A stretch of 44,740 bases of DNA, from the IMG/VR virus record IMGVR_UViG_2617271072_000006, positions 1 to 44,740 of that record, one strand, 5' to 3'. The notes under the pieces are model-generated. The model searched no databases, was not told where the DNA came from, and was given only the letters and a program-made list of their open reading frames with translations. Source of the DNA: a virus. Lineage: Duplodnaviria > Heunggongvirae > Uroviricota > Caudoviricetes. Both the position numbers and the translations under genes were made by a program. Below, piece after piece: positions 6,031 to 44,740 of the stretch (positions are counted from its first letter, which is position 1; each line of letters opens with the position of its first letter).

Positions 6031-6191
6031 ACAGCCCCCCGTTTATTATTTATCTCCTCAGCCAGCCGCTGTGCTTTCAGGGGATTTCTGATAACAGAAA
6101 GGCCGGGAAATACCCAGCCTCGCTTTGTAACGGAGTAGACGAAAGTGATCGCACCTACCCGGATATTATCGTGAGGATGCTTCATCGCCAT
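6003..6191 (-). CDS. Hypothetical protein, lambda orf60a-like
   Basis: 62-aa [29 protein letters not shown]..., overlapping exo start as in lambda. Confidence 0.75.
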
Positions 6192-6862
6192 TGCTCCCCA
6201 AATACAAAACCAATTTCAGCCAGTGCCTCGTCCATTTTTTCGATGAACTCCGGCACCATCTCGTCAAAACTCGCCATGTACTTTTCATCCCGCTCAACCA
6301 CGACATAATGCAGGCCTTCACGCTTCATACGCGGGTCATAGTTGGCAAAGTACCAGGCATCTTTTCGCGTCACCCACATGCTGTACTGCACCTGGGCCAT
6401 GTAAGCCGACTTTATGGCCTCGAAACCACCGAGCCGGAACTTCATGAAATCCCGGGAGGTAAACGGGCATTTCAGCTCAAGGCCATTGCCGTCACTGCAT
6501 AAACCATCGGGAGAGCAGGCGGTGCGCATACTTTCGTCGCGATAGATGATCGGGGATTCAGTAACATTCACGCCGGAAGTGAATTCAAACAGAGTTCTGG
6601 CGTCGTTCTCGTACTGTTTTCCCCATGCCAGCGCCTTAGCATTAACTTCCGGAGCCACACCGGTGCAAACCTCAGCCAGCAGGGTGTGGAAGTAGGACAT
6701 TTTCATGTCAGGCCACTTTTTTCCGGAGCGGGGTTTTGCTATCACATTGTGAACTTCTGAAGCGGTGATGACGCCGAGCCGTAATTTGTGCCACGCATCA
6801 TCCCCCTGTTCGACAGCTCTCACGTCGATTCCGGTACGCTGCAGGATAATGTCCGGTGTCAT
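6182..6862 (-). CDS. exo: Exonuclease (Red alpha)
   Basis: 226-aa ORF matching lambda Exo as recalled ([37 protein letters not shown]...). Confidence 0.97.
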
Positions 6863-7644
6863 GCAGCCACCTTCTGCTCAGTGGCTTTCTGTTTCAGGAA
6901 TCCAAGAGCTTTCACTGCTTCGGCCTGTGTCAGTTCTGACGATGCGCGAATGTCGCGGCGAAATATCTGGGAACAGAGCGGCAATAAGTCGTCATCCCAT
7001 GTTTTATCCAGGGCAATCAGCAGAGTGTTAATCTCCTGCATGGTTTCATCGTTAACCGGAGTGATGTCGCGTTCCGGCTGACGTTCTGCAGTGTATGCGG
7101 TATTTTCGACAATGCGCTCGGCTTCATCCTTGTCATAGATACCAGCAAATCCGAAGGCGAGACGGGCACACTGAATCATGGCTTTATGCCGTAACATCCG
7201 TTTGGGATGCGACTGCCACGGCCCCGTGATTTCTCTGCCTTCGCGGGTTTTGAATGGTTCGCGTCGGCATTCATCCATCCACTCGGTAACGCAGATCGGA
7301 TGATTACGGTCCTTGCGGTAAATCCGGCATGTACAGGATTCATTGTCCTGCTCAAAGTCCATGCCATCAAACTGCTGGTTTTCATTGATGATGCGGGACC
7401 AGCCATCAACGCCCACCACCGGAACGATGCCGTTCTGCTTATCAGGGAAGGCGTAAATTTCTTTCGTCCACGGATTAAGGCCGTATTGGTTGGCGACGAT
7501 CAGCAATGCGATGAACTGCGCATCGCTGGCATCGCCTTTAAATGCTGTCTGGCGAAGAGTGGTGATCAGTTCCTGTGGGTCGACAGAATCCATGCCGACA
7601 CGTTCAGCCAGCTTCCCAGCCAGCGTTGCGAGTGCTGTACTCAT
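6859..7644 (-). CDS. bet: Single-strand annealing protein Bet (Red beta)
   Basis: 261-aa ORF matching lambda Bet as recalled ([37 protein letters not shown]...). Confidence 0.97.
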
Positions 7645-7649
7645 CCGTT

Positions 7650-7946
7650 TTATACCTCTGAATCAATATCAACCTGGTGGTGAGCAATGGTTTCAACCAT
7701 GTACCGGATGTGTTCTGCCATGCGCTCCTGAAACTCAACATCGTCATCAAACGCACGGGTAATGGCTTTTTTGCTGGCCCCGTGACGTTGCAAATGATCG
7801 ATGCAGAGTGATTCAAACAGGTGCTGGGGCAGACCTTTTTCCATGTCGTCTGCCAGTTCTGCCTCTTTCTCTTCACGGGCGATCTGCTGGTAGTGACGCG
7901 CCCAGCTCTGAGCCTCAAGACGATCCTGAATGTAATAAGCGTTCAT
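7650..7946 (-). CDS. gam: Gam, RecBCD inhibitor (98-aa GamS form)
   Basis: 98-aa [63 protein letters not shown]... Confidence 0.95.
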
Positions 7947-8021
7947 GGCTGAACTCCTGAAAATGGCTGTGAAAATATCGCCCGCGAAATGCCAGGCTGA
8001 TTAGGAAAACAGGAAAGGGGA

Positions 8022-8432
8022 TTAGTGATTCAGGCCGTTACCGCGTCCGTCGAGAAAAACTTCCACGAGCAAATCACGGGTATAAGTGCGCTCGATGCCG
8101 CGATGCAGATATAGCCGTCCGCGTAAATTAGCTGATGCAGTCCAGGTACCATCTTTGTGTTTGACCAGCATTCCTGGCATGACCGCACCTCGATTAACGG
8201 TCTGCGTTCCGTAATGTTGATGAACCATAAAAACTCCTGCCCGTAAGCTGGGCTGCTGAACATATAGAGACTTCTGCGCGTATTCAGGCGGTGGATGGCC
8301 GCCGGTTGTCATAACTAAGTCGCCTCGTTGAAGCGACTGAGGTATGAAGTGTTGAGTTGATTTCAGCTGGTCACACCGACGTTCACGCGTCCGCTTCACC
8401 CCTCGCACTCCCCGGAGCCTGCTGAAATTCAA
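8022..8432 (-). CDS. Hypothetical early-left protein in the kil/cIII position
   Basis: 136-aa ORF (possible internal start giving ~96 aa); no motif recognised; lambda-like sequence resumes at its 3' end. Confidence 0.4.
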
Positions 8433-8816: not shown

Positions 8817-10419
8817 TTAATTTATCTTTTCAACATTTCCATGAATCAACAAGTCGTAGGCAAGAAATAGTTTCCTATACTGGGTTTTTAAATTGTCAAC
8901 GTCGCATGCCTTGAATTGAACAAACGCTTCTTTTTTAACATAATCTTCAATCTCCTCTTTGGGGATATTTTTTATGTTCTTAATGACTATAGACAATTCT
9001 TTGTACTTTTTGAACTTTGCATCCTTTATATCTTTGATGTTGGTGTAAATTTTATTTGCATTGATTTTATCTAAGGTGATTTTATTGAGCAAGTCGTCTA
9101 GTTTTCCGTGGCGTTCAATGCGTTGATTTAGTTTTAACACATATTTAGCTGGCAAACTTAACTCTTTCAAATTACATGAGGTTATAGTTTTTGAAAATGG
9201 AAGTTGTAATGAGTTTACTGAACCTAATATGAAATCTATGGCTAATTTATTAGATATTTCATTTTTATTAAATAAGTAGTCTTCAAGATAATTTATTTCT
9301 TTAACTTGTGTGAATACATACTTTTTATCGCCTAGAGCAACAACTAAATTTTTTCCTTGTTTAACACTTTCTTCAAGTCTGTCTAAGTCAGAAGGTGAAA
9401 CCAATAGAGTATCTAAGTGCCCTTTTTCACCCTCATTAATGATAAGTGTTTTAATGGCTCTTTGATACCTTAAAACATCATAAGGTGAGAGCCCTTCATC
9501 AACAGCACTGATCTCATCATAGATCTGTTTATAGTTATCTGTTTTAACAGATGTATATGTAATTTGTAGCTGTTGATCGGTAATCTGTTTTGGTACTACT
9601 TCCTGTTCATTCTCTTTATATTCAATCAAAATTATTCTTTCAGCTGATTTTCGACCATCTTCTCTAGGTAGTTGTGAGGAAAAATCAGAAAGAAGTTTCT
9701 TTACATTCCTGTCAGTTAAAGAATATCCAAGAAAAACTATTGGATTTTTAATCATGTTAGATAGTATCTTGGCACTAATGAGTATAGATTTGTTGTCATA
9801 TTTTTCGTAATCATCTTTATTTATGATTATTGAGTGTGGATCCTTTATATCACCATGTATTTTGTATAACTCACTCCAGCCAATAGTATCTTCGAAAAAA
9901 CCATTATTTCCAATATAGAGTTTTGGAGTTATATTTTGCTCTTGAAGTAAATTTTCTATGAAAGCATCATAATTTGTAGTGATGATTATCTTGGCCTTTT
10001 TTATTAATGTTTTAAATGATGCTAATTCATCAAGATTTACATCCTTTCTGATTGTGTTATTAGAAAATCTTTGGCATATGGCGTATTTAAATGGTGAAAT
10101 ATCTTCACTAAAAACCCTCTTGGCATCTAGTCCATTTAATTTTAATTTGCCAGTCCTAAACAATAGATTGTAATCATTTTCAATTTTACTTGCTGCCTCT
10201 GTATAAATCTTATGATCGATATCATTATCACTGTTATTTTTATGTGATTCTTTTATTGTTAAAAGATAACTATAGAAATCATTTGTGGGATTTGTTATTT
10301 TCCAATACTCGTTTAATAGCTCTTCCCACGTTGGGTAGTTCTCTAAATATATTTTTGAAATGCCTGAGCCAATAAAGACTATTGGGTAATTTTTGAATTC
10401 AAAATTTTTTTTTTGACAT
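8817..10419 (-). CDS. SIR2-like (SIR2_2/ThsA-type NADase domain) protein with uncharacterised C-terminal region; N-terminus frameshifted as assembled
   Basis: ORF 8817-10163 carries IIITTNYD, YKIHG and VFLGYSLTD motifs; the same frame upstream encodes the FIGSGIS glycine loop but has no start codon; ATG at 10419 with RBS is out of frame by one base across a T10 run (10405-10414). Confidence 0.7.
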
Positions 10420-10531
10420 ATCCATATACCTTAAGCTCTGCTTGAAACATCCATTCTATAAATTATGAGGATGTCAGCATGTCTCACCAAAACATCATCT
10501 GGTTATCTTGATGAAATCTGTCATTAATAAT

Positions 10532-33652: not shown

Positions 33653-35029
33653 ATGGATTTATCCTCATTTCCCACCCGACCTTCATTACTTTCGTCGTCT
33701 TCAGGCTGGCGTGACAGGCTTCAGGACGCGTCATTTCGCGGCGTGCCGTTTAAGGTTGAAGAAGAAAGTGCGGGAACCGGTCGCCGTGTGGAAACACATG
33801 AATACCCGAACCGCGACAAGCCCTATACCGAAGATCTGGGAAAAGTCACTTTCCGCCCGTCCATCACAGCTTATGTGGTGGGAGATGACTGCTTTGACCA
33901 GCGCGATCGCCTGATTGAAGCGCTGAATAAACCCGGTCCCGGCACGCTTGTCCACCCGACATATGGTGAGCTGAAAGTCTGTGTTGACGGGGAAGTTCGG
34001 GTCAGCACATCGAAAAGTGAAGGGCGTATTGTCCGCTTTGACCTGAAGTTTGTCGAAGCAGGAGAACTCTCTTACCCCACATCAGGTGCGGCGACGGCGC
34101 AGACGCTGATGTCATCCTGTTCTGCACTGGATGACTGCATTAGTGACAGCTTCAGCGGTTTCAGTATCGATGGTGTGGCGGATTTCGTGCAGAACGACGT
34201 TATCGGTAATGCCAGCATAATGCTGGGGTATGTTTCTGATGCGATGAAAGTGGTGGATTCTGCCGTATCGGATGCCGCCAGGCTGTTGCAGGGGGATATC
34301 TCGGTACTTCTGCCGCCGCCATCGTCAGGCAAAAATTTCGTTGAGCAGGTGCAGAAAATGTGGCGTACCGGGAAACGCCTTTATGGTAACGCCAGCGACC
34401 TGGTTACCATGATCAAAACGCTTTCCGGTGTCAGCCTCGGCAGCGATCTGCAACCGCGCGGCGTCTGGAAAACGGACAGTAAAACCACCGCCACGGCGAC
34501 GCAGCAGCGTAACGTGGTTGCCAGCACCCTTCGTACGACCGCAATCAGCGAAGTGGCGTATGCCGTCACCCGATTGCCTGCGCCAACAACTTCCGCGGTG
34601 ATGCAGAATTCCGCAGTGGGGCAGGCAACAACACCCGCGCAGAGCACTGGCTGGCCTTCCGTCACGCATCCGGCACTGAACAATGCACCGGCGGTGAAAA
34701 ACACGGTTGACCTGCCGACGTGGGAAGAACTGACTGACATTCGCGACACACTGAATACGGCAATTGATAAGGAGTTGTCCCGTACAACCAGTGATGCGCT
34801 GTTTCTGGCGCTGCGCCGGGTGAAAGCAGATCTGAATGCGGATATCAACACGCGCCTTGAACAGTCTGCACGGATCATTCAGCGCACACCGGATGAGGTT
34901 TTACCCGCGCTGGTGCTGGCGGCGACCTGGTTTGATAACGCGGCGCGTGACGCGGACATTATCCGGCGTAATGCCATTACGCATCCCGGCTTTGTGCCGG
35001 TGATCCCTCTGAAGGTGCCAGTGCAATGA
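33653..35029 (+). CDS. Mu gpN-like DNA circularisation / tail protein
   Basis: 458-aa ORF with DRLQDASFRGVPFKVEEE N-terminal motif; position between tape measure and baseplate hub. Confidence 0.7.
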   Translation: MDLSSFPTRPSLLSSSSGWRDRLQDASFRGVPFKVEEESAGTGRRVETHEYPNRDKPYTEDLGKVTFRPSITAYVVGDDCFDQRDRLIEALNKPGPGTLVHPTYGELKVCVDGEVRVSTSKSEGRIVRFDLKFVEAGELSYPTSGAATAQTLMSSCSALDDCISDSFSGFSIDGVADFVQNDVIGNASIMLGYVSDAMKVVDSAVSDAARLLQGDISVLLPPPSSGKNFVEQVQKMWRTGKRLYGNASDLVTMIKTLSGVSLGSDLQPRGVWKTDSKTTATATQQRNVVASTLRTTAISEVAYAVTRLPAPTTSAVMQNSAVGQATTPAQSTGWPSVTHPALNNAPAVKNTVDLPTWEELTDIRDTLNTAIDKELSRTTSDALFLALRRVKADLNADINTRLEQSARIIQRTPDEVLPALVLAATWFDNAARDADIIRRNAITHPGFVPVIPLKVPVQ

Positions 35030-36105
35030 ACGACAATGTCACGCTACGGGTAAATGGCCGGGAGTGGAATGGCTGGACATCGGTGCGCATCGGTGCCGGT
35101 ATTGAACGGCTGGCGCGGGATTTCAGTGTGGAGATCACCCGCCAGTGGCCGGGAGATGAGGGTATCACCACGCTTCAGCCGCGCATTAAAAACGGTTCAA
35201 AAGTGGAAGTGCTGATTGGTGATGAGCTGGTGATCACCGGCTGGGTGGAGGCGACGCCCGTTCGTTACGATGCCCGTTCGGTCAGCACCGGTATTGCCGG
35301 ACGTAGTCTGACGGCTGACCTGATTGACTGTGCAGCCGAACCGACACAGTTTAACGGACGCTCGCTGGTGCAGATTGCGCAGGCGCTTGCTGCGCCTTTC
35401 GGCATTGAGGTGGTGAACAGCGGTGCGCCGTCGGGTGTTATTCCTGATGTTCAGCCTGATCACGGTGAAACGGTGATTGAGGTAATCAACAAAATACTCG
35501 GTCAGCAGCAGGCACTGGCTTACGACGACCCGCACGGCAGGCTGGTGATTGGCGGTATTGGCTCAACGCGGGCACATACTGCGCTGGTACTCGGGGAAAA
35601 CATCCTTTCCTGTGATACGGAGAAGAGTATCCGGGAGCGGTTTTCTGTTTACCAGGTGGCGGGGCAGCGTGCCGGAAACGACGATGATTTCGGTGAGGCC
35701 ACCACCACCGCGCTGCGGGCCCGCACAGAGGACGCATTTATTGCCCGTTACCGTCCGATGTATATCAGGCAGACAGGGCAGGCTACGGGGGCAGGCTGTA
35801 TTGCCCGTGCGGACTTTGAAGCCAGACAACGGGCGGCGCGGACGGATGAAACCACCTATGTGGTGCAGGGCTGGCGACAGGGTAACGGTACGCTGTGGCA
35901 GCCCAACCAGCGGGTGATTGTCTTTGATCCGGTCTGTGGTTTCGACAATACCGAACTGCTTGTTTCGGAAGTCACGTTTACTCAGGACCAGAACGGCACC
36001 CTGACGGAAATCCGTGTCGGCCCACCTGATGCTTATCTGCCTGAACCCGAAGCCCCCGGCGCGCGAAAAAAGAAAAAAGCCAGAGTACAGGAGGACCCGT
36101 TCTGA
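35026..36105 (+). CDS. Mu gpP-like baseplate hub protein
   Basis: 359-aa ORF; conserved order N-P-gp45-gp46-gp47-gp48 of Mu-type tails. Confidence 0.7.
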   Translation: MNDNVTLRVNGREWNGWTSVRIGAGIERLARDFSVEITRQWPGDEGITTLQPRIKNGSKVEVLIGDELVITGWVEATPVRYDARSVSTGIAGRSLTADLIDCAAEPTQFNGRSLVQIAQALAAPFGIEVVNSGAPSGVIPDVQPDHGETVIEVINKILGQQQALAYDDPHGRLVIGGIGSTRAHTALVLGENILSCDTEKSIRERFSVYQVAGQRAGNDDDFGEATTTALRARTEDAFIARYRPMYIRQTGQATGAGCIARADFEARQRAARTDETTYVVQGWRQGNGTLWQPNQRVIVFDPVCGFDNTELLVSEVTFTQDQNGTLTEIRVGPPDAYLPEPEAPGARKKKKARVQEDPF

Positions 36106-36653
36106 TGAGGACGATTGAAGCCATGCAGCGACAACTCCTCGGCCTGATTGGGCGGGCCGTGGTGAAAAGCATCAGTGCCGCCACGAAATGTCAGACCGTG
36201 GATGTGTCTCTGATTGCCGGTGAACCCAAAGCCGGGGTTGAACATCTTGAACCCTACGGTTTTACCGCAAGGGCAAACAGCGGTGCGGAAGCGGTGGTGT
36301 TGTTTCCGGATGGCGACCGTTCTCATGCGGTGGTTGTTACGGTGTCGGACCGGCGCTACCGCCTGAAAGGGCTGCAGACGGGTGAGGTGGCTGTCTATGA
36401 CGATCAGGGGCAGTCCGTGACGCTGACCCGGGAGGGGATCGTGGTGGACGGTGCAGGTAAAACGATCACGTTTCGCAATGCGCCTAAGGCTCGTTTTGAA
36501 ATGGACCTGGAAGTGACCGGACAGGTGAAAGACCTGTGCGACTCCAGCGGCACCACCATGTCAGCGATGCGGCTTGCCTATAACGGGCATCGTCACAGAG
36601 AGAACGGTCAGGGCAGTAACACCGACAAACCTGATAAAGCGATGGAGGCATGA
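36105..36653 (+). CDS. Baseplate assembly/spike protein (Mu gp45 / gpV-like)
   Basis: 182-aa ORF following the hub gene. Confidence 0.7.
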   Translation: MRTIEAMQRQLLGLIGRAVVKSISAATKCQTVDVSLIAGEPKAGVEHLEPYGFTARANSGAEAVVLFPDGDRSHAVVVTVSDRRYRLKGLQTGEVAVYDDQGQSVTLTREGIVVDGAGKTITFRNAPKARFEMDLEVTGQVKDLCDSSGTTMSAMRLAYNGHRHRENGQGSNTDKPDKAMEA

Positions 36654-37078
36654 TGGAACTGTGGCTGACGGTGAACGGTAAACGCACCTGCGCTAGCGCA
36701 CCGCTGGATCCGCTGACCCGTGCCGTGGTGATTTCCCTGTTCACCTGGCGGCGGGCTGAACCTGATGACAATGCCGACGTCCCGATGGGATGGTGGGGGG
36801 ATACCTGGCCTGCGGTACAGAATGACCGTTACGGCTCCCGACTGTGGCTGCTTCAGCGCAGCAAACTGACCAATCAGCTGGTGCAGACGGTAAGGGGGTA
36901 TATCCGCGAATGCCTGCAATGGATGATTGATGACGGCGTGGTGTCCCGTATTGATCTGGATATCCGCCGCACCGGGATTAATGAACTGGGTAACAGTATC
37001 ACTCTCTGGCGTCGTGACGGACCGGTAATGATTTCTTTTGATGATCTGTGGAGTGCGATAACGCATGGCGGACAGTGA
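36650..37078 (+). CDS. Mu gp46-like baseplate protein
   Basis: 142-aa ORF in conserved position. Confidence 0.7.
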   Translation: MMELWLTVNGKRTCASAPLDPLTRAVVISLFTWRRAEPDDNADVPMGWWGDTWPAVQNDRYGSRLWLLQRSKLTNQLVQTVRGYIRECLQWMIDDGVVSRIDLDIRRTGINELGNSITLWRRDGPVMISFDDLWSAITHGGQ

Positions 37079-38123
37079 ATTTCAGCGCCCGACGCTGGCA
37101 GAAAATATCAGTATGCTCCGTAACGATTTATTCGCCAGGCTGGACGTCAGCGACACGCTCCGGCGCATGGATGAAGACGTGCGGGCAAAGGTGTATGCGG
37201 CGGCGCTGCATACGGTTTACGGTTACATCGATTATCTGGCAATGAACATGCTGCCTGACCTGTGCGATGAGTCCTGGCTGGCGCGACATGCTGCGATGAA
37301 ACGGTGTCCGCGCAAGGGGGCCACGGCTGCCAGCGGGTATATGCGCTGGGAAGGTGTCAGCGATGGCCTGAAAGTGACCGCCGGGAGCGTGATTCAGCGC
37401 GATGACCTGGTTCAGTACACGGCAACTGCCGATGCAACCAGCTCCGGTGGTGTCCTGCGCGTGCCGATCGCCTGCTCAAGTGCAGGCGCGGTCGGTAACG
37501 CTGACGACGGTACGGCATTAATCCTGGTCACGCCGGTGAATGGTCTGCCGTCTTCCGGTGTGGCTGACACCCTGACAGGCGGATTTGATACTGAAGAGCT
37601 GGAAACGTGGCGCGCCCGCGTCATTGAGCGGTATTACTGGACGCCTCAGGGCGGGGCTGACGGGGACTATGTCGTCTGGGCTAAAGAAGTGCCCGGCATT
37701 ACCCGCGCATGGACATACCGACACTGGATGGGAACGGGGACTGTCGGTGTGATGATTGCCAGCAGTGACCTGATTAATCCCATTCCGGAAGAGTCAACGG
37801 AAACGGCGGCAAGACAACATATCGGGCCATTGGCCCCGGTGGCAGGCTCTGATTTGTATGTATTCAGGCCGGTGGCGCATAAAGTGGATTTTCATATCCG
37901 CGTGACGCCGGACACACCGGAAATACGGGCTGCCATCACCGCCGAGTTGCGTTCGTTCCTGCTGCGTGATGGTTATCCGCAGGGAGAACTGAAGGTGTCA
38001 CGTATCAGTGAAGCGATTTCCGGTGCGAACGGGGAATACAGCCATCAGTTGCTTGCACCGGCAGACAATATCTCCATTGCAAAAAATGAGCTGGCAGTTC
38101 TGGGGACGATTTCATGGACGTGA
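37065..38123 (+). CDS. Baseplate J-like protein (Mu gp47-like)
   Basis: 352-aa ORF in conserved position. Confidence 0.75.
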
Positions 38124-38698
38124 CAAACGATGATTATATCCGTCTGTTGTCGGCACTGTTGCCGCCCGGTCCGGCGTGGTCAGTCAGCGATCCGGCGATT
38201 GCCGGTGCGGCACCGTCATTAACCCGCGTTCATCAGCGTGCGGATGCCCTGATGCGGGAGCTGGATCCGCGCACCACCACTGAACTGATAAACCGCTGGG
38301 AGCGTCTGTGCGGTCTGCCGGATGAATGTATTCCCGCAGGGACACAGACCCTTCGCCAGCGTCAGCAACGGCTGGATGCGAAGGTTAATCTGGCGGGCGG
38401 CATCAATGAGGATTTTTACCTTGCACAGCTTGCTGCCCTGGGCAGACCAGACGCCACTATCACGCGATACGATAAAAGCACGTTCACCTGCTCATCGGCC
38501 TGTACTGACGCAGTGAATGCGCTGGAATGGCGGTATTACTGGCAGGTCAACATGCCAGCTGCCACCAACACCACCTGGATGACATGTGGCGATCCCTGTG
38601 ATTCCGCACTGCGTATCTGGGGCGACACCGTTGTCGAGTGTGTGCTTAACAAACTCTGCCCGTCGCATACCTACGTAATTTTTAAATATCCGGAGTAA
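38114..38698 (+). CDS. Mu gp48-like tail protein
   Basis: 194-aa ORF between baseplate J and tail fibre genes. Confidence 0.7.
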
Positions 38699-38701
38699 TC
38701 C

Positions 38702-39457
38702 ATGCATCGTATAGACACGAAAACCGCGCAGAAGGATAAGTTCGGCGCGGGTAAGAACGGTTTTACCCGTGGTAACCCCCAGACCGGCACACCTGCCACC
38801 GATCTGGATGATGACTACTTTGACATGTTGCAGGAGGAGCTTTGCGGCGTGGTGGAGGCATCCGGTGCCAGCCTGGAGAAGGGGCGGCACGACCAGCTGC
38901 TTACCGCGCTTAGTGCGCTACTGTTAAGCCGCAAAAATCCGTTTGGCGATATCAAATCGGACGGCACGGTGAAAACGGCTCTCGAAAACCTTGGTTTGGG
39001 AGAAGGCTCTGCATTACCTGTTGGTGTGCCTGTTCCGTGGCCCTCAGCCACTCCGCCAACAGGCTGGCTAAAATGCAACGGAGCAGCTTTTTCTGCTGAA
39101 GAATACCCGGAACTGGCAAAGGCTTACCCGACAAATAAATTGCCTGATTTACGCGGTGAATTTATTCGTGGCTGGGATGACGGACGTGGAGTGGATGCCG
39201 GGCGACAATTATTATCTTCACAGGGGGATGCAATAAGAAATATTGAGGGATTCGCAGATGGCGGGATCGGCATGTCTTTTGATGCAATCAGAGGGGCTTT
39301 TTACGATGCAGGAACACGATCAGCGAGAATGCCGAATAACACAACTGATATAGGCAAAACCGATGACCTTGGATTCGACGCCTCTCGTGTCGTGCCAACA
39401 GCTAATGAAAACCGTCCACGTAACATCGCCTTTAATTATATTGTGAGGGCTGCATAA
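38702..39457 (+). CDS. Tail fibre protein, constant N-terminal part plus variable C-terminal tip 1 (Mu S / P2 H-type)
   Basis: 251-aa ORF; first 102 aa identical to the inverted copy at 40452-41036; tip contains PWP...[23 protein letters not shown]...[17 protein letters not shown]. Confidence 0.85.
38981..39004 (+). other. Din-invertase-type crossover site (gix/hix/cix-like) at the constant/variable junction of tail fibre gene 1
   Basis: CTCGAAAACC-TT-GGTTTGGGAGAA: dyad AAAACC..GGTTT with TTCTC-type outer half-sites, resembling hix/gix consensus as recalled. Confidence 0.6.
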
Positions 39458-40451: not shown

Positions 40452-41036
40452 TCAATACCCCACCGCTATAATGTCCACATTAAATCCTCCGGGACCTGCC
40501 TGCCAGATGCTGGCCCCTGTTAATGATTTTGTTTGATGAACAACCGCCACATTTGCTGGCGATTGTGTTTCAGTTGTTACAGTACCGATATCATTCCAGT
40601 TAATTGAGATGGAATAGTTCGTTGTTGTAAACGACCGGGGGAAAGTTATGTGTCTTACATTGGTGCCAATAGGAAATCCAAGATAAACACGCTGAATTAT
40701 CATTCCTCCAGGTAACATAACCCAGTTAGCACCTTCTCCCAAACCAAGGTTTTCGAGAGCCGTTTTCACCGTGCCGTCCGATTTGATATCGCCAAACGGA
40801 TTTTTGCGGCTTAACAGTAGCGCACTAAGCGCGGTAAGCAGCTGGTCGTGCCGCCCCTTCTCCAGGCTGGCACCGGATGCCTCCACCACGCCACAAAGCT
40901 CTTCCTGCAACATGTCAAAGTAGTCATCATCCAGATCGGTGGCAGGTGTGCCGGTCTGGGGGTTACCACGGGTAAAACCGTTCTTACCCGCGCCGAACTT
41001 ATCCTTCTGCGCGGTTTTCGTGTCTATACGATGCAT
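40452..41036 (-). CDS. Tail fibre protein of the inverted module, same constant N-terminus with different C-terminal tip 2
   Basis: 194-aa ORF; residues 1-102 identical to fibre 1, then unrelated C-terminus. Confidence 0.85.
40734..40759 (-). other. Second Din-type crossover site, inverted relative to site 1
   Basis: TTCTCCCAAACC-AA-GGTTTTCGAGAG, exact reverse complement of the site at 38981-39004, at the constant/variable junction of fibre gene 2. Confidence 0.6.
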
Positions 41037-41039
41037 GGA

Positions 41040-41624
41040 TTACTCCGGATATTTAAAAATTACGTAGGTATGCGACGGGCAGAGTTTGTTAAGCACACAT
41101 TCGACAACGGTGTCGCCCCAGATACGCAGCGCGGAATCACAGGGATCGCCACATGTCATCCAGGTGGTGTTTGTGGCGGCTGGCATGTTGACCTGCCAGT
41201 AATACCGCCATTCCGGCGCATTCACCGCGTCAGTACAGACCGATGAGCAGGTGAACGTGCTTTTGTCGTATCGCGTGATGTTGGCATCTGGTCTGCCCAG
41301 GGCAGCAAGCTGTGCAAGATAAAAATTCTCGTTGATGCTGCCCGCCAGGTTAACCTTCGCATCCAGCCGTTGCTGACGCTGACGAAGGGTCTGTGTCCCT
41401 GCGGGAATACATTCATCCGGCAGACCGCACAGACGCTCCCAGCGGTTTATCAGTTCAGTGGTGGTGCGCGGATCCAGCTCCCGCATCAGGGCATCCGCAC
41501 GCTGATGAACACGGGTTAATGACGGTGCCGCACCGGCAATCGCCGGATCGCTGGCTGACCACGCCGGACCGGGCGGCAACAGTGCCGATAACAGGCGGAT
41601 GTAATCATCGTTTGTCACGTCCAT
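41040..41624 (-). CDS. Mu gp48-like tail protein, second (inverted) copy
   Basis: 194 aa, 6 substitutions relative to 38114-38698 (~97% identity). Confidence 0.7.
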
Positions 41625-42673
41625 GAAATCGTCCCCAGTACCGCCAGTTCGTTTTTCGCAATGGAGATATTGTCCACCGGTGCAAGCAACTGATGGCTGT
41701 ATTCCCCGTTCGCACCGGAAATCGCCTCACTGATACGCGATACCTTCAGTTCTCCCTGCGGATAACCATCACGCAGCAGGAACGAACGCAACTCCGCGGT
41801 AATGGCAGCCCGTATTTCTGGTGTGTCCGGCGTCACGCGGATATGAAAATCCACCGTATGTGCCACCGGCCTGAATACATACAAATCAGAGCCTGCCACC
41901 GGGGCCAGTGGCCCGATATGTTGTCTTGCTGCCGTTTCCGTTGATTCTTCCGGAATGGGGTTAATCAGGTCACTGCTGGCAATCATCACACCGACAGTCC
42001 CCGTTCCCATCCAGTGTCGGTATGTCCATGCGCGGGTAATGCCGGGCACTTCTTTAGCCCAGACGACATAGTCCCCGTCAGCCCCGCCCTGAGGCGTCCA
42101 GTAATACCGCTCAATGACGCGGGCGCGCCACGTTTCCAGCTCTTCAGTATCAAATCCGCCTGTAAGGGTGTCAGCCACACCGGAAGACGGCAGACCATTC
42201 ACCGGCGTGACCAGGATTAATGCCGTACCGTCGTCAGCGTTACCGACCGCGCCTGTAGTTGAGCAAGTGATCGGCACACGCAGGACACCACCGGAGCTGG
42301 TTGCATCGGCAGTTGCCGTGTACTGAACCAGGTCATCGCGCTGAATCACGCTCCCGGCAGTCACCTTCAGGCCATCGCTGACACCTTCCCAGCGCATATA
42401 CCCGCTGGCAGCCGTGGCCCCCTTGCGCGGACACCGTTTCATCGCAGCATGTCGCGCCAGCCAGGACTCATCGCACAGGTCAGGCAGCATGTTCATTGCC
42501 AGATAATCGATGTACCCGTAAACCGTATGCAGCGCCGCCGCATACACCTTTGCCCGCACGTCTTCATCCATGCGCCGGAGCGTGTCGCTGACGTCCAGCC
42601 TGGCGAATAAATCGTTACGGAGCATACTGATATTTTCTGCCAGCGTCGGGCGCTGAAATTCACTGTCCGCCAT
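41615..42673 (-). CDS. Baseplate J-like protein, second (inverted) copy
   Basis: 352 aa, a few substitutions relative to 37065-38123. Confidence 0.75.
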
Positions 42674-43087
42674 GCGTTATCGCACTCCACAGATCATCAA
42701 AAGAAATCATTACCGGTCCGTCACGACGCCAGAGAGTGATACTGTTACCCAGTTCATTAATCCCGGTGCGGCGAATATCCAGATCAATACGGGACACCAC
42801 GCCGTCATCAATCATCCATTGCAGGCATTCGCGGATATACCCCCTTACCGTCTGCACCAGCTGATTGGTCAGTTTGCTGCGCTGAAGCAGCCACAGTCGG
42901 GAGCCGTAACGGTCATTCTGTACCGCAGGCAGGTATCCCCCCACCATCCCATCGGGACGTCGGCGTTGTCATCAGGCTCCGCCCGCCGCCAGGTAAACAG
43001 GGAAATCACCACGGCGCGGGTCAGCGGATCCAGCGGTGCGCTGGCGCAGGTGCGTTTACCGTTCACCGTCAGCCACAGTTCCATCAT
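42660..43087 (-). CDS. Mu gp46-like protein, second copy; frameshifted as assembled
   Basis: ORFs 42869-43087 and 42660-42947 correspond to the two halves of gp46; one G missing relative to copy 1 near 42925-42935. Confidence 0.65.
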
Positions 43088-43722
43088 GCCTCCATCGCTT
43101 TATCAGGTTTGTCGGTGTTACTGCCCTGACCGTTCTCTCTGTGACGATGCCCGTTATAGGCAAGCCGCATCGCTGACATGGTGGTGCCGCCGGAGTCGCA
43201 CAGGTCTTTCACCTGTCCTGTCACTTCCAGGTCCATTTCAAAACGTGCCTTAGGCGCATTGCGAAACGTGATCGTTTTACCTGCACCGTCCACCACGATC
43301 CCCTCCCGGGTCAGCGTCACGGACTGCCCCTGATCGTCATAGACAGCCACCTCACCCGTCTGCAGCCCTTTCAGGCGGTAGCGCCGGTCCGACACCGTAA
43401 CAACCACCGCATGAGAACGGTCGCCATCCGGAAACAACACCACCGCTTCCGCACCGCTGTTTGCCCTTGAGGTAAAACCGTAGGGTTCAAGATGTTCAAC
43501 CCCTGCTTTGGGTTCACCGGCAATCAGGGACACATCCACGGTCTGACATTTCGTGGCGGCACTGATGCTTTTCACCACGGCCCGCCCAATCAGGCCGAGG
43601 AGTTGTCGCTGCATGGCTTCAATCGTCCTCATCAGAACGGGTCCTCCTGTACTCTGGCTTTTTTCTTTTTCCGCGCGCGGAGGCTTCGGGTTCAGGCAGA
43701 TAAGCATCAGGCGGACCGACAC
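43084..43722 (-). CDS. Baseplate gp45-like protein, second copy (apparent N-terminal extension)
   Basis: 212-aa ORF; last 182 aa match 36105-36653; extension arises from an indel difference in the gpP/gp45 junction. Confidence 0.65.
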   Translation of the reverse strand: MSVRLMLICLNPKPPRAEKEKSQSTGGPVLMRTIEAMQRQLLGLIGRAVVKSISAATKCQTVDVSLIAGEPKAGVEHLEPYGFTSRANSGAEAVVLFPDGDRSHAVVVTVSDRRYRLKGLQTGEVAVYDDQGQSVTLTREGIVVDGAGKTITFRNAPKARFEMDLEVTGQVKDLCDSGGTTMSAMRLAYNGHRHRENGQGSNTDKPDKAMEA

Positions 43723-44710
43723 GGATTTCCGTCAGGGTGCCGTTCTGGTCCTGAGTAAACGTGACTTCCGAAACAAGCAGTTCGGTATTGTCGAAACCAC
43801 AGACCGGATCGAAGACAATCACCCGCTGGTTGGGCTGCCACAGCGTACCGTTACCCTGTCGCCAGCCCTGCACCACATAGGTGGTTTCATCCGTCCGCGC
43901 CGCCCGTTGTCGGGCTTCAAAGTCAGCACGCGCAATACAGCCTGCCCCCGTGGCCTGCCCTGTCTGCCTGATATACATCGGACGGTAACGGGAAATAAAT
44001 GCGTCCTCTGTGCGGGCCCGCAGCGCGGTGGTGGTGGCCTCACCGAAATCATCGTCGTTTCCGGCACGCTGCCCCGCCACCTGGTAAACAGAAAACCGCT
44101 CCCGGATACTCTTCTCCGTATCACAGGAAAGGATGTTTTCCCCGAGTACAAGCGTGGTATGTGCCCGCGTTGAGCCAATACCGCCAATCACCAGCCTGCC
44201 GTGCGGGTCGTCGTAAGCCAGTGCCTGCTGCTGACCGAGTATTTTGTTGATCACCTCAATCACCGTTTCGCCGTGATCAGGCTGGACATCAGGAATAACG
44301 CCCGACGGCGCACCGTTGTTCACCACCTCAATGCCGAAAGGCGCAGCAAGCGCCTGCGCAATCTGTACCAGCGATCGTCCGTTAAACTGTGTCGGTTCGG
44401 CTGCACAGTCAATCAGGTCAGCGGTCAGACTACGTCCGGCAATACCGGTGCTGACCGAACGGGCATCGTAACGAACGGGAGTCGCCTCCACCCAGCCGGT
44501 GATCACCAGCTCATCACCAATCAGCACTTCCACTTTTGAACCGTTTTTAATGCGCGGCTGAAGCGTGGTGATACCCTCATCTCCCGGCCACTGGCGGGTG
44601 ATCTCCACACTGAAATCCCGCGCCAGCCGTTCAATACCGGCACCGATGCGCACCGATGTCCAGCCATTCCACTCCCGGCCATTTACCCGTAGCGTGACAT
44701 TGTCGTTCAT
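43619..44710 (-). CDS. Mu gpP-like baseplate hub, second copy
   Basis: 363-aa ORF near-identical to 35026-36105 except for a frame difference in the last ~20 codons. Confidence 0.7.
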   Translation of the reverse strand: MNDNVTLRVNGREWNGWTSVRIGAGIERLARDFSVEITRQWPGDEGITTLQPRIKNGSKVEVLIGDELVITGWVEATPVRYDARSVSTGIAGRSLTADLIDCAAEPTQFNGRSLVQIAQALAAPFGIEVVNNGAPSGVIPDVQPDHGETVIEVINKILGQQQALAYDDPHGRLVIGGIGSTRAHTTLVLGENILSCDTEKSIRERFSVYQVAGQRAGNDDDFGEATTTALRARTEDAFISRYRPMYIRQTGQATGAGCIARADFEARQRAARTDETTYVVQGWRQGNGTLWQPNQRVIVFDPVCGFDNTELLVSEVTFTQDQNGTLTEIRVGPPDAYLPEPEASARGKRKKPEYRRTRSDEDD

Positions 44711-44740
44711 TGCACTGGCACCTTCAGAGGGATCACCGGC
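44707..44740 (-). CDS. 3' end of gpN-like gene of the second module (partial, runs off window)
   Basis: Minus-strand sequence mirrors the gpN/gpP overlap of copy 1 (..VIPLKVPVQ stop overlapping ATG). Confidence 0.5.
   Translation of the reverse strand, partial: PVIPLKVPVQ

Follow-up and report, generated by a model that had tools for sequence, protein, structure and literature searches.

The 44,740-nt stretch of viral DNA analysed here (hereafter “the window”) carries the gam gene of a lambdoid phage or prophage. We are highly confident that the DNA in front of this gene is the ordinary, commonest allele of a non-coding kil-gam leader, that the 98-residue Gam is the gene's sole product, and that the longer frame known as GamL is confined to lambda's close relatives. 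In lambda, the Gam dimer plugs the DNA-binding channel of RecBCD, and the protein is expressed from the leftward early (Red) operon. That the gam gene is short is itself already known: databases annotate a 98-aa product in thousands of E. coli prophages and Stx phages. Two Gam isoforms have been described in lambda (PMC5218532, PMC11610958).

The gam gene and its leader

The window's Gam is complete by every comparison that we made. Its residues 1-98 match positions 1-98 of the 98-position Pfam Gam profile (PF06064) with an E-value of 3.4e-65 and a score of 216.8 bits, against a cut-off of 25 bits, and the solved chains of lambda Gam, PDB entries 5MBV (98 aa) and 2UUZ (99 aa), match it end to end (E ~2.5e-61). 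Only two substitutions, L22I and S61A, separate it from lambda GamS, which comprises residues 41-138 of GamL; 96 of the 98 amino acids and 291 of the 297 nucleotides are identical. At 98% identity to lambda GamS, the protein is predicted to inhibit RecBCD as well. It is also the commonest Gam variant, found unchanged in 42 of 109 loci among the IMG/VR matches listed. The gene is followed downstream by two open reading frames, one (6859..7644) for an annealase of the RecT family and the next (6182..6862) for a YqaJ-type exonuclease. The order is gam-bet-exo, and the three genes form the Red-type recombination module of a lambdoid E. coli phage or prophage of mosaic make-up. The features of the region are collected in Table 1.

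Table 1. Features of the kil-gam region (coordinates in the window)
Feature	Position	Strand	Basis or remark
gam coding sequence, short form only (98 aa, GamS equivalent)	7650..7946	-	ORF list, ATG at 7946
Shine-Dalgarno AGGAG	7954..7958	-	7 nt before gam ATG, read directly
T4 run (the “extra T”; T3 in lambda)	7960..7963	-	alignment; 1 nt upstream of Shine-Dalgarno
C (T in lambda), linked to T-run length	7965	-	alignment and haplotype census
75-nt leader, apparently non-coding, kil-type stop to gam ATG	7947..8021	-	remnant of lambda GamL codons 16-40
Weak hairpin GCCTG-GCATTTCG-CGGGC, then GATATTTT, terminator-like	7980..7997	-	terminator consensus scan
kil-type gene, 96 aa from ATG at 8312	8022..8312	-	phrog_294; not homologous to lambda kil
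Mosaic junction, end of lambda/933W homology at ~8028	8028..8040	-	megablast, alignment, translation

We aligned positions 7930-8110 of the window (minus strand) with lambda (NC_001416, 32000-34000), with 933W and with PhiR30_1, the nearest full-length match. A first-pass annotation, made from the letters of the window, had held that the DNA upstream of the gam ATG matches the lambda GamL leader and that it carries one additional T in a run of that base. The alignment to lambda bears out both statements. Over the 82 nt from 7947 to 8028 the two sequences are ~95% identical, differing by substitutions at 7965, 7994 and 8021 and by one indel, and identity of this degree over such a length means that the homology is not due to chance. 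At the site itself the sequence is CACAGCCATTTTCAGGAG in the window and CACAGCTA-TTTCAGGAG in lambda. The window thus combines a run of four T with a C at the neighbouring linked position (C+T4), whereas lambda combines three T with a T (T+T3).

The Shine-Dalgarno motif lies within a 21-nt block, TTCAGGAGTTCAGCCATGAAC, that the alignment shows to be invariant in lambda, 933W, and the Citrobacter and Salmonella relatives. In the arrangement that we propose, the leftward early transcript would pass through the kil-type gene into the leader, whose role would be to bring ribosomes to the strong Shine-Dalgarno and the ATG at 7946. Ribosomes starting at this AGGAG-N7-ATG would make the 98-aa Gam as the only product.

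We reject structure in the leader RNA as a supported element, and regard a terminator role for its hairpin as doubtful. The minimum free energy of the leader is no better than that of shuffled sequences (z -0.52), and its one small hairpin, a 5-bp stem with an 8-nt loop and a T-rich tail, is inconsistently kept: the stem is broken in several E. coli haplotypes, and in the Citrobacter relatives it is retained with different loops and without the T tract.

The leader also contains a second homopolymer of variable length. The C run that follows the kil stop (8017..8021, minus strand) has four, five or six C in relatives, and the four-C variant breaks the long Gam frame in one T3 locus.

Reading frames upstream of gam

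By three-frame translation, the frame that contains the gam ATG has a TAA (8001..8003) 19 codons before that start, and no ATG, GTG or TTG lies in this frame between the two. The frame equivalent to GamL is also closed. It resembles GamL residues 14-34, shifts past the extra T and ends at a TGA at 7915..7917; on its upstream side it is closed by a TAA at 8038..8040, so that the open stretch between this stop and the T run comes to only 26 codons. The same translation finds no ATG, GTG or TTG start in this frame. Because the homology to lambda ends at ~8028, the GamL ATG and the first ~14 codons are absent from the window. Lacking a start codon, frameshifted, and interrupted by in-frame stops, the long Gam therefore cannot be made.

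The closed frames and the missing start codon uphold the earlier statement that the window encodes only the 98-aa GamS form. Its companion, that the extra T closes the long frame, needs amendment: the T does shift the frame, but it is not the sole block, as the long-form start codon has been lost through a module swap at ~8028. Programmed frameshifting or slippage at the T run was ruled out as a means of rescue, since the upstream frame has no start codon to join to gam.

The kil-type gene and the mosaic junction

The end of the lambda homology marks a mosaic junction. Megablast matches to 933W-type phages begin at query position 473, which is window position 8028, and in the alignment the start of lambda's GamL, ATGGATATTAATACTGAA..., has no counterpart in the window, where the 3' end of the kil-type gene is found instead. 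This gene stops at the same TAA (8022..8024) as lambda kil. Residues 60-136 of the open reading frame at 8022..8432 match phrog_294, “Kil protein for bacterial septation inhibition”, with an E-value of 1.4e-38; the gene has no match in Pfam. Related phages annotate the window-type gene as Kil, at 291 nt in PhiR5_1.

Annotations of this gene vary from 68 to 96 aa. In its 5' part (8229..8233, minus strand) the window has a run of five T, and PhiR30_1, judged from translations, apparently has six; with this difference, another of the upstream ATG codons shares the reading frame of the phrog_294 Kil domain. On the lambda-type side, some proteins of 171-213 aa (P0002 and P0005-P0008), mostly from Logan assemblies, combine a Lambda_Kil domain with a Gam domain (both Pfam) and appear to be Kil-GamL fusions, of the kind expected from a 1-nt indel in the lambda-type kil/GamL overlap.

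The nearest known relatives compare with the window as follows. The Escherichia phages PhiR30_1, PhiR47_2, 4A7 and Perceval are 98% identical to it over 866 nt spanning the kil-type gene, the leader and gam, with point differences only; their Gam is annotated at 98 aa, and PhiR30_1 carries the T4 allele as the window does. In 933W (AF125520) and other Stx-converting phages the C+T4 leader is identical to the window's and Gam is likewise annotated at 98 aa, but 933W keeps lambda-type kil DNA with the GamL ATGGATATTAAT, frameshifted by T4, and the window is without that DNA. Lambda itself (gam at NC_001416 32816..33232; GamL 138 aa) shares the Shine-Dalgarno and the gam-bet-exo order with the window. 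It has T3 and the linked T, and its 40-codon upstream frame is open from an ATG inside kil; the window, in contrast, combines T4 and C with another kil-type gene, lacks the long-form ATG, and has both relevant frames closed by stops.

Distribution of the two leader haplotypes

We searched 5426 complete E. coli genomes with allele-specific 42/43-mers, built in such a way that the site falls within each of their 28-nt seeds. The window's haplotype, C+T4, occurs at 2900 places in 2590 of these genomes, and lambda's, T+T3, at 972 places in 900. The mixed forms are nearly absent, T+T4 being present at two places in two genomes and C+T3 at none; that is, 2 and 0 among ~3870 E. coli loci, with the two main haplotypes standing at about 75:25. 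A pattern scan of IMG/VR that allowed either base at the linked site and a run of two to five T covered at least 120 loci. It returned C+T4 in 85 and T+T3 in 38, with no other haplotype, among the IMG/VR matches listed together with lambda, 933W and PhiR30_1. In a collection of phage records the two are equal at 90 each, the T3 set being rich in laboratory derivatives of lambda. Among the IMG/VR matches listed, the window's own leader haplotype outnumbers every other (20 of 113).

Lambda is therefore the minority form, and C+T4 is the most frequent natural state in E. coli prophages. The T of the window is “extra” only relative to the lambda reference. These counts also bear on the suspicion that the additional T is a homopolymer sequencing or assembly error and that the true sequence has the lambda frame. 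Homopolymer runs are error-prone, and the same window has A10 where most relatives have A9, a difference that breaks its SIR2-like gene; homopolymer errors may thus be present elsewhere in this assembly. However, an identical 43-mer, including the linked C, recurs at the 2900 places in the E. coli genomes and in the 90 phage records, and the window's leader is the haplotype most often met in IMG/VR. Because C+T4 is the majority natural state, a sequencing error is not credible as the source of the extra T. The population data by themselves already make an error at the T4 run very unlikely. Even a run of three T would give no long Gam in the window, where the ATG region is absent and the TAA at 8038..8040 closes the frame. 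With all of this considered, we can give this explanation hardly any credence.

The flanks of the two haplotypes were compared among the IMG/VR matches listed plus the reference phages. A long Gam frame is missing from all 84 T4 loci with enough flanking sequence; the lambda-type ATG DNA is kept in 34, as in 933W, and 50 have other upstream DNA, as does the window. Among the T3 loci, 34 of 37 have an intact 40-codon extension, although divergence among these loci is too low for that many open frames to show selection. Each kil type is found with each leader haplotype. In PhiR5_1, for example, the window-type kil is joined to T3, and the annotated Gam is nevertheless 98 aa long. The dimorphism at this site, with its two haplotypes, is stable, old and fixed, and has been moved between kil modules by recombination. 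The first-pass annotation had taken the extra T as a sign that homopolymer length varies outside coding constraint. This is right insofar as the leader behaves as non-coding DNA, but the T run does not vary freely: it exists in only two linked haplotypes, with the mixed forms as rare as given above.

Another reading of the dimorphism is that T3 and T4 form a functional switch kept by balancing selection, through a role for GamL (for example, towards defences that sense Gam) or through tuning of Gam translation by the U run. Both haplotypes are indeed frequent and are shuffled among kil modules, and the T run lies 1 nt from the Shine-Dalgarno. In resistant strains of K. pneumoniae, GamL gives inhibition zones equal to or slightly larger than those of GamS, and in the wild type the GamS zones are larger (PMC5218532). 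Against a switch, recombination among prophages alone predicts frequent haplotypes, nothing points to constraint on the extension, and the long-form ATG is missing in the window and in those T4 loci with other upstream DNA. We consider a switch highly unlikely.

Coding status of the leader

When a collection of 5.8 billion proteins was searched with lambda GamL, every cluster that fully covered the N-terminal 40 residues had an identity to lambda of 96% or more. At 70-90% identity, the Gam homologues (from E. coli, E. albertii, Salmonella, Citrobacter and Raoultella) measure 97-100 aa. Because start codons are picked by gene callers, we inspected six divergent loci directly. All six have a stop in frame 3-31 codons before the annotated ATG, and no 40-codon extension is therefore possible. 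Four of the six have an in-frame ATG, GTG or TTG between the stop and the annotated start, within 14 codons: the extra starts are 13 and 14 codons upstream in two Salmonella loci, and a single one is immediately upstream in two E. coli loci that adjoin an exonuclease VIII gene. We take these extra starts as incidental.

Those two E. coli loci (L126 and L127) contain an unusual mix of recombination modules. Their Gam homologue, 81% identical to lambda's, lies directly downstream of, and overlaps, the exonuclease VIII (RecE-like) gene, which is at least 684 aa long and extends past the start of the locus; bet and exo homologues are also present.

The DNA of the leader points in the same direction as the proteins. 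Outside the TTCAGGAGTTCAGCCATGAAC block, the leaders of the relatives differ in length by amounts that are not multiples of three. Nucleotide diversity in the 32-nt part of the leader that could be scored without bias is 0.028, compared with 0.018, 0.014 and 0.040 at gam codon positions 1, 2 and 3, respectively; leader diversity is near-neutral. In the T3 loci, a hand reading of GamL codons 16-40 gave about six amino-acid-changing and three silent variants, numbers that are few and of low power but compatible with neutrality. In lambda, the start codon of GamL is located within kil, and the sequence before it, GCTTATAAAAA, has no Shine-Dalgarno-like motif. The comparison indicates that the leader is non-coding DNA. 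The claim that the short form is the functional product finds support in the majority allele, in the 97-100 aa homologues, in the 98-position Pfam model and in the structures of 98-99 aa.

One could nevertheless suppose that the leader is a decayed coding region, with the 138-aa Gam ancestral and the T4 frameshift having spread because the extension was dispensable. The GamL-equivalent frame of the window is still close to lambda GamL residues 14-34, and most T3 loci keep the frame open, which speaks for such decay. The outgroups speak otherwise. The Citrobacter and Salmonella leaders, which are partly homologous, have in-frame stops 11-31 codons upstream and lengths that are out of register, and they carry the window's C at the linked site (CCA). 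Further, the extension is absent from every homologue less than 96% identical to lambda in the protein search, the variants in the T3 loci fall as expected without constraint, and the GamL ATG, inside kil, has no Shine-Dalgarno. We regard decay as improbable, and retain the view that the leader is non-coding and that its C+T4 form is the ordinary one.

Origin of the long frame in lambda

The same outgroups suggest a direction for the change. Lambda's T+T3 is probably the derived state and would have arisen from C+T4 by the loss of one nucleotide and an adjacent substitution. We place modest confidence in this polarity, which is drawn from two outgroup lineages and a short gapped alignment. Such a loss would put 25 leader codons, preceded by 15 that are overprinted on kil, in frame with the gam ATG. 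Lambda's 138-codon GamL frame needs two things together: an ATG, which comes from the lambda-type kil DNA, and the T+T3 leader. We consider it an evenly balanced proposition that lambda GamL is an N-terminal extension of recent origin, restricted to one lineage, to which a 1-nt loss and the adjacent substitution in a non-coding leader gave rise. For the window phage, we infer that GamL is dispensable rather than lost.

GamL and GamS are both active when expressed from plasmids (PMC5218532), and the GamL construct presumably keeps the internal GamS start. Given the activity of plasmid-expressed GamL, the long form may have a role in lambda itself.

Other features of the window

Two further features of the window are recorded here. 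The first is a candidate defence gene of the SIR2-like type (8817..10425, minus strand), which lies within an island of 29% GC that separates the kil-type gene from the S24 repressor. It matches Pfam SIR2_2, PADLOC PDC-S25 (E 2e-194) and phrog_2695. The gene is frameshifted 7 codons past its ATG, at the A10 tract (~10404..10413), and reads MDMSKKKF followed by a stop. Among its IMG/VR relatives, 12 of 14 carry A9 with the frame open (11 of them at 535 aa and L133 at 460 aa); in the other two, an A8 tract likewise breaks the gene. The frameshift in the window could be an error of sequencing or the mark of a pseudogene, or the tract could be phase-variable.

The second is an inverted duplication of ~4 kb, with arms at 34996..39006 and 40732..44740 that are 97-98% complementary and reach the end of the window. 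It doubles Mu-like baseplate genes (a GpP/gp44-like hub, Baseplate_J and Gp48), and its arms flank a 1.7-kb centre that holds a tail-fibre gene and two opposed tail-fibre-assembly genes. The arrangement could be two tail modules set tail to tail, or a fold-back artefact of assembly.

Implications

For the window phage the biological import of these results is small, in that it has the standard short gam gene. The comparative data nonetheless argue clearly for the short form as the conserved RecBCD inhibitor and for a long frame found only in lambda's close relatives, and lambda's 138-aa gam is unsuitable as a reference length for annotators. If lambda GamL is indeed a young extension, it would be a small, datable case of the birth of coding sequence in the best-studied phage. 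In that event, the “full-length Gam” of many recombineering plasmids would bear a leader peptide that is neither native nor conserved.
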